Of a DNA stretch of 64,000 nucleotides, positions 37,036 to 49,597 are shown piece after piece; the first letter of the stretch is position 1, and each line of letters begins with the position of its first letter. Under the pieces are notes generated by a model. That model was not told the DNA's origin. It saw only the letters and a program-made list of their open reading frames with translations, and made no database searches. The position numbers and the translations under genes were made by a program. Where the stretch lies: positions 128,001 to 192,000 of the IMG/VR virus record IMGVR_UViG_3300021254_000020. One strand, 5' to 3'. The DNA comes from a virus. Its lineage: Duplodnaviria > Caudoviricetes.

Positions 37036-37641
37036 GGAGTAGGTCATAATGACCTACTCCCTATGAGTATGATTTTATGGGTAAACCTTGTGTATATATA
37101 AAAGAGTTATGGATTGCGTTAGCTACCTTATACCGGTTATCCTCTGCTTCAAACTAGAATAGCAGTAACCCTCTTCGAGTAGCACGGAATTGTAATAAGG
37201 ATTTGGTTTATCAATTTGGCGGGTTATCAGATTGGGCTCGTTAAAAATACTACCAGGTATAAAAATAGTTTTATCAGGTTATCAGTTTAGGTACGTATAT
37301 CAATTTAACGAGTTATCAGTTTAGCCCATTTAAGCATCTTTGTATTTATGTGCTTAATTTGATTGAGGAAATCAATGTGACTCATTGTCCCCATATGAAC
37401 GCTCAGAGGGATTCGAACCCTCGTGATCTTTGCGATCGGAAGATTTTCGGTCTTCTGTGTTTAACCACTCCACCACAAGCGTTAACCATTCTGGTTATGT
37501 ATGAACAGCTTAAAAAGCTGGTGCAATCCTATTAGTCTTTTCTATTACCAAGAGGTAAGAGCATGTGGCCATAAGACATCTCGATTGCATTAGGAAAAGG
37601 CCCTAATTTGATTGAGGTTAATTCAGCCTCGTAATCCATAA
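37036..37641 (-). ncRNA. candidate long structured RNA with AAAYUGAUAA repeats and embedded tRNA
   Basis: no credible ORF; about 6 motif copies 37207-37324; 9-bp inverted repeat 37237-45/37304-12; terminator 37036-60. Confidence 0.55.
37398..37482 (-). tRNA. atypical class II (long variable arm) tRNA, anticodon GAA
   Basis: acceptor ACGCTTG/TGAGCGT, D arm GTG-GAGTGGTTAAA-CAC, anticodon arm GAAGA-CCGAAAA-TCTTC, variable arm GATC-GCAAA-GATC, T arm GAGGG-TTCGAAT-CCCTC; no encoded CCA. Confidence 0.85.
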
Positions 37642-39274: not shown

Positions 39275-41542
39275 TTACTCACATTTGCTCCAACCACAAT
39301 TACTGCAAGTCACACACTTTCCTTCAGGAATAAGTGTTTTCTTCCCGCACTCGGGACATACACGTTTAATCGTATCTTCCTCTTCCATATGAGCCTCCCC
39401 AATGTCTTGCTTCTTCATTACCAATTCAATAGCATCAGCAATAGCATTAGAGCAGGAGAGTGATACATCAAGTTCACCATTCCTACGAAGAAGCTGACAA
39501 GCAGGACATTGATTATTTCTCAGCTCATCTAGTACTCTAGTCAGTTTAACACCACTACGGAGTGATAAGGAGATCATACGAGTAATAGTGTTGATATTAG
39601 CCTGGCAACCACCGCTCGCATTAGTGAACACCTCAAAGATGTTCCCATCTTCCGTTTTATTAACTGTAACATACATAGATCTAGCACAGCTAGTACGTAC
39701 TCTCACTGTAGCACCTTCTACGTACTTAGTATTCCTACGACTAGGGGCATCGATACTATCATATGCAGGAACATATCCTTTAGGTACAGCTACCAGAGGC
39801 TCAGAGGTATCCTCATCATCCTTCTTCTTTTCTACACCAAGGATATTACCACGTTCGCATCCATCGACGAATACAGTGATACCTTTAAGCCCTTGTTTCC
39901 ATGCTTCCATATAGATCTCATAGATTTGTTCTTTAGTAGCATCATGGGGAAGATTAACAGTAGAACTGATCGCATTATCTACATACTCCTGAACTATGGC
40001 TTGTAGACGTACGCGATCCAAGTAAGGTACTTCATGAGACTCTATCAGGAACGGGAATCTCTTCTTAGCTTCTTCTACGCTAATACCTTCACAGTGATGG
40101 AATTTAAGAAGATCCTCTACACCACGAGCATATACCAAGAAGGTCTTTCCACTATCCTCCATGGAATGAGATGTACGTTCATAGGCGATCTTAAACATAG
40201 GTTCAATACCACCAGTATACTTACCAGCAAACAAGCTGATAGTACCAGTAGGAGCGATAGACAGAAGAGAACCATTACGAATACCATACTTCTTTATATC
40301 CCCATGCAGTTCAGGATAGGCTTGTATTTGAATAGACTTAAGAGTCTTATCAGCATCGAACTTCTTGAATGGTCCTTTAAGTTTAGCTAACTCAATACTA
40401 GTAATAAGAGCCTGCTTCATGAACTCATCCATTACGTCACTCATTAAGTGACGAGACTCTTCAGAACCATACTTGATTCCTAATGCTACGAAAGCATCAG
40501 CCATACCAAATATACCTAAACCAATGGAACGCCAATCATCAATAACCTGTTTGTTGAGTTCCAATGGTTGCATGTCTCTGCCGTAGTCTAATACTTCATC
40601 CAACATGCGTACTGCATAATGAACAGTATATTTCAAACGATCATAGTTGATATGAGCATGATCAGTAAACTTATCGTCTACCATTTCATAGAGATTAACC
40701 GAACCAAGATTACAAGAATTTCCTCTAGTACCAAAGTATTCGGCACATGGGTTTGATATATCTATTGTGTATTCAGGATATCCGCTCAGTAAATGAAAAC
40801 TACGCACACGCTCTATAAAAATAAGGCCAGGGTCCCCAAAACGGCGAGAGCACTCGCAGAATTCTTCGAAGAATTCTCTTGCATTGATTACGTTAGAGAT
40901 CTTTCCTGTCTCAGGAGAGTCAAAATGTAACTCAAAATCTCTATTTTCTTCTACCGCCTTCATAAATTTGTCAGTGAACTTGATACTGATATTCATAAAA
41001 GAGAGTTTCTCATTATTCTGCTTTACTCTGAGGTACTCATAGATATCTGGATGTTCGCAAGATAACCCGACCATAATAGCCGCCCTACGCCCGTTCTGTC
41101 CAATAACCTGACCTACTGTATCGAAGACATTAAGAAATGATACTGCTCCGCTGCTCTTTAGTGCTGAATTATTTACTCTTGCTCCTTTAGGACGAAGTGT
41201 ATCTATAGAAATACCAACACCTCCACCATAGGAGAAGATACGTGCCATATCCCTAGCAGTGTCAAATATAGATTCTATATTATCTTTGGGGATATTACCA
41301 AGAACATAGCAGTTGCTTGTACTTAGTTTACGTTTCCCCTTGTAGCCCGCCCCAAATAGAGTTCTACCTCCAGGTAAGAACCATGCCTTATCTAGTAGAG
41401 TATATGCATCATCCTTGATTTCATCACTAAAGATGCTTGCCAGTCTGGGAATGAACTCTTCTGGTTTCTCTCCTTCATGTAGATATTTACGAGTCATGAT
41501 TCCCATAGAGATTTCATTGTCATACCATTTCTTTTCACTCAT
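39275..41542 (-). CDS. nrdJ: class II (adenosylcobalamin-dependent) ribonucleotide reductase
   Basis: FLPGGR, SNCYV, GGGVG, RRAA, NPCAE, SCNLGS, IAPTGTIS, AISSTVN, C-terminal TSC/CxxC domain and zinc ribbon; no NrdB nearby. Confidence 0.92.
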   Translation of the reverse strand: MSEKKWYDNEISMGIMTRKYLHEGEKPEEFIPRLASIFSDEIKDDAYTLLDKAWFLPGGRTLFGAGYKGKRKLSTSNCYVLGNIPKDNIESIFDTARDMARIFSYGGGVGISIDTLRPKGARVNNSALKSSGAVSFLNVFDTVGQVIGQNGRRAAIMVGLSCEHPDIYEYLRVKQNNEKLSFMNISIKFTDKFMKAVEENRDFELHFDSPETGKISNVINAREFFEEFCECSRRFGDPGLIFIERVRSFHLLSGYPEYTIDISNPCAEYFGTRGNSCNLGSVNLYEMVDDKFTDHAHINYDRLKYTVHYAVRMLDEVLDYGRDMQPLELNKQVIDDWRSIGLGIFGMADAFVALGIKYGSEESRHLMSDVMDEFMKQALITSIELAKLKGPFKKFDADKTLKSIQIQAYPELHGDIKKYGIRNGSLLSIAPTGTISLFAGKYTGGIEPMFKIAYERTSHSMEDSGKTFLVYARGVEDLLKFHHCEGISVEEAKKRFPFLIESHEVPYLDRVRLQAIVQEYVDNAISSTVNLPHDATKEQIYEIYMEAWKQGLKGITVFVDGCERGNILGVEKKKDDEDTSEPLVAVPKGYVPAYDSIDAPSRRNTKYVEGATVRVRTSCARSMYVTVNKTEDGNIFEVFTNASGGCQANINTITRMISLSLRSGVKLTRVLDELRNNQCPACQLLRRNGELDVSLSCSNAIADAIELVMKKQDIGEAHMEEEDTIKRVCPECGKKTLIPEGKCVTCSNCGWSKCE

Positions 41543-41930: not shown

Positions 41931-42001
41931 TTCAAAACCTCCTATATAGTGTATTAATCATCTGTTAGTGAGAAAGTATAGTTTTACTACCGCTTTATTA
42001 G

Positions 42002-42029
42002 CCTAATTGTAGGTTATGAGCCTAAAATA
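42002..42029 (+). repeat. free-standing copy of the intron-end motif
   Basis: CCTAATTGtAGGttatGAGCCTAAAATA matches 46668-46698(-) and 48226-48259(-). Confidence 0.8.
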
Positions 42030-42071
42030 AATAAAAAATAAAGCCGACCAGATATACCGGTCGGCCATACT

Positions 42072-45878: not shown

Positions 45879-46114
45879 TTATCCTACATTCTTATACTTA
45901 GCCTTCAAAGCTTTAATTCTGCCTATCTGATTCTGATTATAACGACGTCTACCCATATGAATAAAGGATTCCAGATTAATTACCGTATCCTTAAACACAT
46001 TTACGTCATTATTAAACAGACCGTCATTACGAGAGATACAGAATGCATTTCTCGGAGAGTAGACAGCCTCACATGCATTATCAAAGGCCTTATTGAGAAG
46101 CAACTTAATATTTA
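45879..46114 (-). CDS. RNA polymerase beta' N-terminal subunit, exon 3
   Basis: C|TA AAT ATT AAG continues (L)NIKLLLNKAF...YSPRNAFCISRNDG after group II 3' end. Confidence 0.85.
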
Positions 46115-46654
46115 ATATGAATAGGTAGAGACCATGATATTATCTCATCTCTTTCCCCTCATTCGAACGCAGCAAGCGACTTTCATCGCACTACGCTTTC
46201 CATCGAGTATTATCCCGACTAGAGACCATTCCTCCATTCCCGTTACAGGAACTTCTTAGGTTCGATCTCCGCTTTTCAGCATAGGTTAAGATGCTTATCT
46301 CCATATGGTTTCGTCATCAATCTAAATCGACCTATACCTTTCTTTCGTTCAGATAGACCTATCATTACATACATATCCTTAGGTGCCTACTTTATCTATA
46401 TATACCTAGATAGTACCTGTAATACTATATGGGTGTTCTCAACTGCCACCTTACTAACCCACAATACATATAGATTTTAATAGTAGATTCGTGTCCCTCA
46501 CCATAGATATCTTATTGACTCCCGGTTTGTTCAACCGACTTTACCGAGCTACTAACCCTGATCTTTACAATCAACGCTAGTCGGAGATTAGAGGAGATAC
46601 TTCTAGGCGTTACCCTATCATTTTATCTCTCGGTCTACCCACACAAAATCGCAC
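46115..46654 (-). mobile_element. ORF-less group II intron (IIB-like), 540 nt
   Basis: 5' GTGCG; EBS1 GGCAGT (46447-42) pairs exon ATTGCC; domain V AGCGTAGTGCGAT-GAAA-GTCGCTTGCTGCGTT; domain VI with bulged A 46122, 8 nt from terminal AT; removal restores frame. Confidence 0.92.
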
Positions 46655-46670
46655 GGCAATCTCCATCATA
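46655..46670 (-). CDS. RNA polymerase beta' 16-nt micro-exon (YDGDC)
   Basis: TAT GAT GGA GAT TGC C supplies the missing part of the ADYDGD catalytic motif. Confidence 0.88.
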
Positions 46671-46716
46671 TTTTAGGCTCACGCGCCGCAATTAGGAATT
46701 TAATGCGACACGATTT

Positions 46717-47830
46717 ATGAACGTACATTACTAAGACTACAGTATTATTATAAACACATCATAATCTAAGGTTGTTATTACCCTTTTCGGTAAACCCTCT
46801 ATATAATTCAGGATAGTTCTTGGTTATATTTTTAAAGGTTCTTCCAGTTCTTATAAAGCTCAAACTAGTTATGAACTTCTTATCATATGGAACTCCAAGA
46901 GCATTGGCTATCTGCATAGAATCCCTTCCAGCTACCATCATCTGGCATATTCTATCAACCGTAGAACCATCCCAAGTGTATCCCGATATATCATAATCCT
47001 TAGATATAGATTTCCATCGTTTTCCTGTTCTAATATCAGAAACCAGAGCAGCAAAATTCATATTATATGGAACTCCAACAATCTTAGCTATATCTGGTGA
47101 TTCCATACCTTGAGTAAGACATTGACAAATCGTATGAATCATCTTATATTTTTCAGCATTTTTGTTTACTGATACTATATGATAATTCTTTGCAATATCT
47201 TTCCAAGCAGTACCATTTCTGATATTGCTAATTAGAACTATCCATCGTCTATCATAAGGTACACCAAATTTTTCTGCTACTTGTTTAGAACTAATATTTG
47301 GATCCTCTAGCATTTGACAAATAGCATGCTTCATCTCTAATGGGAAATTAAAGATATGATCTCTATTTACATCATCGCTCAAAGAATACAACACATTATT
47401 CTGATAATCGGTCCACATAAGATTATCGAGTTTATTATGATATTTTACCTCATCTTTATGATGAACTAACTGACCATAATATGGATCCGATGTATCAGTA
47501 AGAAAAGTAATGGCTACCATTCTATGAACAAGCATCATAGCATCTTCTAATCTGCATCTAAGATATCCTTCCGGTAAAGATACTGGGTATATTTTCATCT
47601 GAGTAACCCTATCATATACGTTTCCGTAATTACTAACCAGATATCTCGGATTTAGTGGGAATATCCTAAATTCCTCATTAAGATAATATCCTAAAGTAAG
47701 AGCTCCATTAGAATAATCACTGGCTTTGTATTTATCTTGATTTTCTGCACCTGGTATAAATTCTTCCATTATATCACCTCCTTTACTATATGATTATAAA
47801 TTAACTGTAGTCTTAGTAATGTACGTTCAT
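46717..47830. repeat. 27-bp perfect inverted repeat looping out the HNH ORF
   Basis: ATGAACGTACATTACTAAGACTACAGT 46717-43 and reverse complement 47804-30. Confidence 0.95.
46759..47769 (-). CDS. intron-encoded HNH homing endonuclease with three C-terminal HTH-like repeats
   Basis: YLVSNYG (NUMOD4-like), VHRMVA.TF, VHHKDE...N..DNL.W; 3x ICQ...IA...GVPY......S.IR.G..W/F. Confidence 0.9.
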   Translation of the reverse strand: MEEFIPGAENQDKYKASDYSNGALTLGYYLNEEFRIFPLNPRYLVSNYGNVYDRVTQMKIYPVSLPEGYLRCRLEDAMMLVHRMVAITFLTDTSDPYYGQLVHHKDEVKYHNKLDNLMWTDYQNNVLYSLSDDVNRDHIFNFPLEMKHAICQMLEDPNISSKQVAEKFGVPYDRRWIVLISNIRNGTAWKDIAKNYHIVSVNKNAEKYKMIHTICQCLTQGMESPDIAKIVGVPYNMNFAALVSDIRTGKRWKSISKDYDISGYTWDGSTVDRICQMMVAGRDSMQIANALGVPYDKKFITSLSFIRTGRTFKNITKNYPELYRGFTEKGNNNLRL

Positions 47831-48259
47831 CAACAATTATCTAACCTTTCGGCTACCATAGACTATATCAGTCCCCCAGCATTACCTGGTAGGGTGCTAG
47901 CACTTCGCTACTAGGATCGTCAATCCGTTCGCTACAGGGAGCTGATCCCCTTAGTCGTTGAACCCCTTTCGAGGATGCTGATTGCCGATTTACTTCTATG
48001 CCCTTAGCACAGTCTATCTCTCCCTAGAAGTTGGGTATTCTACAATAGATCTGCTTTTATTTCAGCTTAGGCTATCTTTAGGATTTGTTTCTACTTTCGT
48101 AGCATGCCTACTATATAGACGATGCACCTAAAGCTTTACGATGTTCCAGCAGTTCACTAGCTCTCACTCACATATTACTATATGAGCGGACCATGATTTA
48201 GAAATTGTCTAAATCGCCCTTTTTTGTAATTTAGGCTCGCGCCTTAACAAAATTAGGGG

Positions 48260-49597
48260 GTCAGCCGCAAGTCCACTGAGGACGAATTGATCCAATGAGA
48301 GAACCGCACTGTCTGTATTGACTCCGACTACCCTCTTCCATACTATGGATTCGTAATGGATAGTAGGATTGCGGTTAATCAATACATGGATCTTATCCAT
48401 CTTAATCAGGTTGTTGAGGATATCTAGTACCCTCTGATCAAGCTGCAGTGTAGCATAATACCATTTCTTATATGCCTCAGCATATGTAATATTATAGCTA
48501 CTCTGTATGATATTGATCAATACCTGTTCTAAGAGCAATACGAGACCAGTATAGGGTAACATAACTTCGTCAGACCTCAGTTTACTATCCGGCACAATGA
48601 TAGACCGTTCAGAGAAAGCAGTACGTCCAGATATAGTAGAACGCATTATACCTCTCTTATCTGCTAATATGCGGATAATCTCATCAGAGAGTTCACTTAG
48701 CTTAACCTGCATATCCCAGAGAATCTGATTCTGTAGTTTGGGATTTCTATAGATAGAGAGAGTATCATTATTGAGTTGAGCTCCTAATGATGCTAAGATA
48801 TTAAAGGTAGCATTGGTTTTCTCGAAAGTAAACCGCTTACCTTCTACCTTAGCAATACGAAGCTGGGTGGTATAGATAGGGATAGAATGAGAGAATACAC
48901 AATCTCTATGCTGCATAATGAGATCGTATACATCCTTCTTATTTTTTCTTTTCTTTAAGAAGTATGCCAGTATCTCATCAAACTTCTCATAAAAACCCAT
49001 CATACCAAGGCTCTCATATTTAGAGTCTAATTTACTCTTCTTCTTATATCTACGAGCATTCTTTCTCTTAAAGATTTTTCTATCATATGAACTCATGGGT
49101 TTACCATCAGCATCGAGTTCGATAGCTGGTTCTAATATAGACTCCAAGTTATCTTTTCCGATGATGGAGATGAGTTCTACATAGATAGCAGGATTGATTA
49201 TATGATATTGATCCTTTAAATGGATATATCCAAAGTAGGTGAAATCATCACCTACTAATTTAGCGGGAGTTCCACAATAAGGACAGTAGAAGTTAGGATG
49301 GTCCATCACAGAATTAAATGCTCCTTGCAGATAGCCACAAGCACATTTGTATCTGTGAGAGAATGCTGCTTCATCTCCAAGCTGTCTACCAAACTTAGTA
49401 GAGAAGATAGATGTGTCACTCTTCAAGGATTTTTGAAGAGGTTGCTTTGAATCGATAATGAATGCTTGCCCAACACTCATATCTTTCTCAAACTCATTAT
49501 CAAGATTGAGTATAGACAGTTTAACGAAATAATCATATTCATTATCTCTAGGATAATGAATATTGAGTTTCACGTCTTTCAGGCTATTCTCATCCAT
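48260..49597 (-). CDS. RNA polymerase beta' N-terminal subunit (non-virion type), exon 1
   Basis: CACG...CPYC zinc site, FGYIHL, KRGIMR...GR..FSERSII, INRNPTIH, ends GLAAD; spliced product 529 aa. Confidence 0.92.

Follow-up and report, generated by a model that had tools for sequence, protein, structure and literature searches.

A U.G pair at the 5' splice site and a terminal guanosine (omega-G) are the textbook, near-universal determinants of group I intron splice sites. A C:G pair at the 5' site weakens docking of P1, and a terminal adenosine (omega-A) weakens the second step of splicing. Natural exceptions to these rules have been described. The hexacoral mitochondrial intron ND5-717 is a natural omega-A group I intron that is spliced in vivo (PMC8146996, PMC6545197), and a 23S group I intron of Coxiella burnetii is reported to lack omega-G (Raghavan 2007, cited in PMC3428280). 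Natural C.G pairs at the 5' splice site have likewise been reported. [quoted passage not shown] Each of the two splice-site exceptions is published separately; a literature search of incomplete coverage found no paper describing the two losses in one intron, and none showing that the combination permits splicing.

Here we analyze a group I intron in the RNAP beta' gene of a gut jumbo phage, which has C where U is expected at its start and A where G is expected at its end. It lies in the window, meaning the whole 64,000-nucleotide stretch of DNA under analysis, which was taken from a 266-kb virus record. Like the published introns of jumbo-phage RNAP genes, it has the group I core elements, an HNH reading frame, an insertion point at conserved Asp codons and an adjoining group II intron. 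Unlike them, it combines a C:G 5' pair with omega-A and a hairpin extension at the 3' end, and its type carries a P1 loop of 55-95 nt with two hairpins. Natural loss of omega-G is a feature shared with ND5-717 and the Coxiella intron, but the window intron, a mobile intron of a phage mRNA, lacks U.G as well, and omega-G is retained in close relatives inserted at this site. As in the natural C.G introns, a C is paired to a guide G at the cut, although here that C is combined with omega-A. Protein coding does not force the C, because the codon also allows U: among 27 intron-less alleles sampled, 17 read GAT and 10 read GAC. The resemblance to IStrons is confined to the group I core with added terminal sequence. 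TnpA and TnpB are absent and an HNH gene stands in their place, and subterminal hairpins at a fixed distance from both ends, as in IStrons and IS200/IS605 elements, were not found.

We consider it probable that this insertion is removed by group I splicing in which base pairing defines the splice sites and neither U.G nor omega-G takes part. The initial annotation had listed nested mini-introns, a nuclease/ligase or new ribozyme acting at motifs near the ends, DNA excision of the IS200/IS605 kind, and a dead gene. That list omits the simplest option, namely that group I splicing proceeds with C:G as the 5' pair and with omega-A; the intron has the look of a ribozyme of unusual tolerance, not of a new excision system.

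Junctions of the insertion and state of the host gene

All features lie on the minus strand unless stated otherwise. Exon 1 (48260-49597) encodes the N-terminal part of beta' (PHROG 2987, E 9e-45; tblastn matches to beta' of AR9 and phiR1-37) and ends at the first Asp of the catalytic motif, which homologs of the gene carry as an intact ADFDGD. It is followed by the group I intron (46671-48259; 1589 nt, beginning with C and ending with A), by a 16-nt exon 2 (46655-46670) encoding Y-D-G-D-C, by an ORF-less 540-nt group II intron (46115-46654; GUGCG...AU; Rfam RF02004 at 91 bits and RF00029 at 43 bits) and by an intact, conserved exon 3 (45879-46114) that reads LNIK...KNVG and then a stop. The near-identical strains L001, L002 and L019 are without exactly this insertion and read GAT TAT; all three contain the group II intron, and exon 2 is identical in L001 and L002. 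Exon 2 is continuous with exon 3 in L086, and L086/L087 read FDGDCLNIK uninterrupted. The 9-mer ATCATGGTC in domain VI of the group II intron (46138-46130) equals the group I guide 9-mer; it is present in L001 as well, though that strain has no group I intron, and could be due to chance. Elsewhere in the window are a tRNA-Phe gene (37398-37482) and an uninterrupted ORF of 755 aa (39275-41542) that appears, by eye, to be ribonucleotide reductase-like.

We enumerated every join between positions 48290-48181 and positions 46760-46657. One join alone, C48260 | A46671, restores GLAADYDGDCLNIK, which agrees with the earlier claim that ADYDGD requires a GAC|TAT join with 1589 nt removed. None of the 86 in-frame U|G joins restores the motif, confirming that the canonical U|...G| choices fail. 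The U.G pair that had been assigned at GACU|AUGAU is one base off; the cut falls after C48260, which is paired to guide G48191. This pair is taken as the splice-site pair because, in homologs that combine C with omega-G, the reading frame survives only if the cut follows GAC. The terminal nucleotide is A46671, and it is likewise A in L075, L086, L087 and L003. Both intron ends are thus non-canonical, as had been proposed. The junctions repeat in independent assemblies, with ENA contig L075 showing 99.96% identity over 2600 nt spanning both and JGI contig L076 being identical across the 5' junction, and assembly error is an unlikely source of the insertion. The allele is also present in ENA assembly ERZ12302850, and L086 is found in ERZ919309. 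Three metatranscriptome runs yielded short group II intron fragments only, none of them containing a joint.

With both canonical nucleotides missing, the intron might not be usefully spliced, leaving the allele dead or crippled. We found no second copy of beta' in the genome, where the sole similar motif, GGDFDGD, sits in a different gene that is probably a second polymerase; the single-copy beta' gene is probably essential. It is under purifying selection. Comparison of exon 1 with L001 gives a dS of 0.277 and a dN of 0.004 (dN/dS ~0.02), and on the branch of the window phage all 23 changes in exon 1 and all 3 in exon 3 are synonymous. Most exon differences from L001 (58 of 68) fall in the last 709 nt before the insertion (48260-48970), including 10 within 43 nt, and likely mark a co-conversion or recombination tract. 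Since differences cluster beside the intron, as co-conversion gives, part of the selection signal may predate the insertion, and the intron may be a recent arrival, as a dead allele would allow. However, the exons of this single-copy subunit are intact, several samples as well as the diverged L086/L087 show the same state, the guide shows adaptation to the local codon, and omega-A is kept across cores that are only 76% identical. A dead gene, as entertained in the initial annotation, is therefore disfavored, and we judge it improbable.

Group I core, guide and same-site relatives

By its anatomy, as read from sequence, the insertion is a group I intron that carries a gene for an HNH endonuclease. 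The catalytic core (P2-P9; 47842-48184) contains the P/Q/R/S elements and helices P2, P3, P4, P7, P8 and P9. Across eight homologs P4 and P7 are invariant and paired, the guanosine-site pair G47956:C47861 in P7 is also invariant, and compensatory changes occur in P3, P5a and P9; the earlier description of an intact core stands. The intron scores below threshold with Rfam RF00028, which is weak evidence. After P9, a 46-bp inverted repeat with 85% complementarity is predicted to fold into a long stem (47833-47788 with 46759-46714), and the ORF is looped out of this stem within the P9 region, the whole element covering 46714-47833. The ORF (46759-47769; 336 aa) has an HNH domain and C-terminal HTH-like repeats (phrog_59, E 9.5e-31; weak HTH_7 match), features that identify it as a putative homing endonuclease gene.

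The internal guide sequence (48189-48197) forms 9 of 9 pairs with the exons in P1 and P10: G48191 lies opposite exon C48260, and pairing to the 3' exon is through the 5' part of the guide. The guide also tracks the exon codon, being AUCAUG/UAUGAU in the window, AUCAAA/UUUGAY in L003 and L086, and GUCAAA/UUUGAC in L071, with an A-to-U change opposite the Tyr codon of the window phage. That the guide follows the codon is the best sign of continued selection for pairing between the guide and the exon sequence directly behind the terminal A. P1 (48189-48262) has a long insert, and in the predicted fold (-23.5 kcal/mol, z -3.45) a 4-bp P1 closes a three-way junction with hairpin A (48258-48217; tip GGC-GCGA-GCC, the left end motif) and hairpin B (48215-48195) as its arms. 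Homologs show a similar two-hairpin insert. The frame of exon 1 continues 16 codons into the intron (48209-48259) to a stop in hairpin B, and most homologs also stop within the long P1 loop, such that translation could remodel this loop. The 3' terminal domain (46671-46713), whose layout is the same in L003 and L086, is predicted to comprise the P9.2 hairpin (46713-46679) with the right end motif, an A-rich linker and the omega-A at 46671. A GCC in this domain is predicted to be able to pair with the GGU after P7, giving a P9.0-like pairing. In both omega-A types the modeled P9.2 stem covers an internal CGUG, and it may hide internal Gs that would be usable as cryptic ends.

Host-protein searches and contig look-ups brought together many introns at this same site, a sample of about 10 non-independent lineages. 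U.G is combined with omega-G and a short P1 loop in the L008 group, L064, L074 and L083, and with omega-G and a long two-hairpin P1 loop in L084 and the second intron of L034. C:G with omega-G is found in L020, L071, L080 and L081, where the exon ends in GAC and omega-G lies directly before a UUU codon. L003, with an exon ending in GAU and a sequence that stops 5 nt past its junction, combines U.G with omega-A, and C:G with omega-A occurs in the window, L075 and L086/L087. Omega-A is common to cores of only 75-76% identity, and the intron tree is too poorly resolved to settle a single origin for it. Because relatives show each loss singly or jointly, a tolerant ribozyme is likelier than a new excision system.

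Further searches added little to this series. A covariance model revealed no further intron of this type in the phage's own genome, and its matches in ten related records were all introns of other kinds or ones known before. DNA-pattern scans for the motif or core, run on viral and genome collections, returned nothing or likely chance matches (L077, L088), protein-seeded locus searches with single sequences gave no matches, and blastn searches of named phages with the core yielded short fragments only. Several features of related loci were recorded along the way. In L083 (2454-3120), a 6-nt exon lies between two group I introns within the same catalytic motif, and the related phage record L018 / G010 has eight group I-like matches in two clusters, four of them in the beta' gene. 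At the 3' ends of L020, L080 and L084, a GUCAA/GUCGAA word could base-pair with the start of the next exon, resembling a second P10.

Under group I splicing positioned by base pairing, the mobile intron would leave the mRNA by ordinary two-step transesterification, with pairing setting both splice sites in place of the conserved nucleotides. Free guanosine in the P7 site would first attack after GAC, at C:G rather than U.G. In the second step the guide would pair with UAUGAU of the next exon (P10), the P9.0-like pairing would hold the 3' end, and ligation would occur after A, with internal Gs perhaps masked by P9.2. The end motifs would be peripheral structure, one a hairpin tip in the enlarged P1 loop and the other part of P9.2/P9.0. 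Protein help is possible, and the HNH gene would spread the intron by homing. That the intron splices is something we infer from sequence.

The repeated motif at the intron ends

The initial annotation described related segments at the two junctions, each with its own hairpin. Their similarity is above chance (p ~0.003 in the window and 0.007 in L003; local alignments compared with dinucleotide shuffles), and the 266-kb genome contains the full motif at only two places, both of them intron ends. The left copy is predicted to form the tip of hairpin A in the P1 three-way junction. The right copy, however, is predicted to be split between the P9.2 stem and the P9.0-like pairing, and its GGC..GCC has no hairpin of its own predicted in context. 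Across homologs the motif is a quasi-palindrome that appears in either orientation, such that reverse-complementing the left copy of L020 gives the right copy of the window. A dispersed regulatory repeat was rejected as the identity of the motif because its core words are not enriched genome-wide, and no excess of promoters or terminators was found. The motif presumably resembles CRISPR I-C repeats and REP elements, a likeness that was set aside because the motif flips orientation. An intergenic look-alike of the right end segment lies at 42000-42030 (plus strand), and another is at genome position ~46970.

Among the related introns of this sample the motif lies near nearly all non-canonical junctions, but its position, orientation and presence vary. 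It is present at the 3' end of all three omega-A types and of no omega-G type, and at the 5' end in 7 of 8 C-start types, and it is absent from the canonical long-loop introns of L084 and L034. Its distance from the 5' cut ranges from 9 to 22 nt. Five homologs have one end without it. The 3' end lacks it in four homologs, the 5' copy of L086 is degenerate, and L003 combines a left copy with canonical U.G. The variable distance, the flips and the missing ends indicate that the motif is not a fixed two-ended signal for cleavage or excision. Its association with omega-A ends and C starts may reflect either ancestry or function, and the presence of a similar motif near both ends is left unexplained by the base-pairing model.

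There is some chance, which we regard as modest, that a dedicated end element has replaced both conserved nucleotides, with GGC-N-GCC-YAA being read by a protein, pairing both ends or supporting stepwise terminal removal; this would be an undescribed route of group I splicing. One version keeps group I chemistry and lets the GGC-N4-6-GCC-YAA motif compensate for the lost U.G and omega-G, either as a protein-binding site or through strand-swap pairing of the ends. The distribution of the motif over omega-A, C-start and canonical long-loop introns is as this version would have it. In addition, predicted pairing joins the 3' end and the 5' arm of hairpin A in the window (-11.1 kcal/mol), L086 (-10.8) and L003 (-8.2), a marginal result against shuffles (p 0.03-0.10). 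However, shared ancestry could give the same association, the omega-G member L080 is also predicted to pair end to end, L003 combines its left motif with canonical U.G, and L086 has only a degenerate copy. No motif/core pairing is conserved across the homologs examined, since left-loop/P3 pairing is confined to L020, L071 and L081 and left/P5a pairing is found mainly in L003, and the loop orientation flips between homologs. We hold such compensation to be unlikely. The left-loop complementarity to the 5' strand of P3 in L020, L071 and L081, which spans 8 bp within the first 35 intron nucleotides and is not conserved in the window, could be a folding switch.

Removal in several steps would involve nested mini-introns, a nuclease/ligase, or splicing at an inner G followed by removal of a 38-43-nt remnant. 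L003 and L086 do carry a sequence resembling the L008-type canonical terminus ~40 nt before the exon, and by eye a 9-bp pairing in the window could guide an inner splice to G46709, although no such inner guide was found in L086. Nested mini-introns, as initially suggested, lose ground because recreating GACU causes a +1 frameshift in four omega-G homologs (L020, L071, L080 and L081). The proposal of a nuclease/ligase or new ribozyme acting at the motifs fits poorly with their variable distance from the cut, their flips, the five homologs that lack one end, and the absence of an RtcB gene from the phage genome, although a ligase of the host could take this role. The remnants are also out of frame, and ribosomal bypass of them was rejected for want of a matched landing codon. 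Stepwise removal is, in our estimate, slightly less plausible even than a dead allele.

The least credible alternative is precise DNA excision through hairpin ends in the manner of IS200/IS605 elements, for which we see almost no room. A quasi-palindrome in both orientations is what DNA-level sites can look like, but a Y1 transposase (PF01797) is absent from the genome, the ORF is of the HNH type, and one end is without the motif in five homologs. The RNA-level covariation in core and guide, together with the HNH homing gene, instead points to splicing and homing. Moreover, the empty-site strains are not excision products, because they carry GAT and many other differences.

Implications of an intron without U.G and omega-G

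A natural intron that lacks both U.G and omega-G thus sits in a single-copy, probably essential phage gene. Close relatives cover all four states at one site (L084, L080/L081, L003 and L086) and provide a ready-made series for compensation tests. The finding matters for annotation rules that insist on U|...G| and for the engineering of ribozymes for circular RNA or trans-splicing. For the intron itself, tolerating C would allow homing into GAC alleles, which make up 10 of the 27 intron-less alleles sampled.
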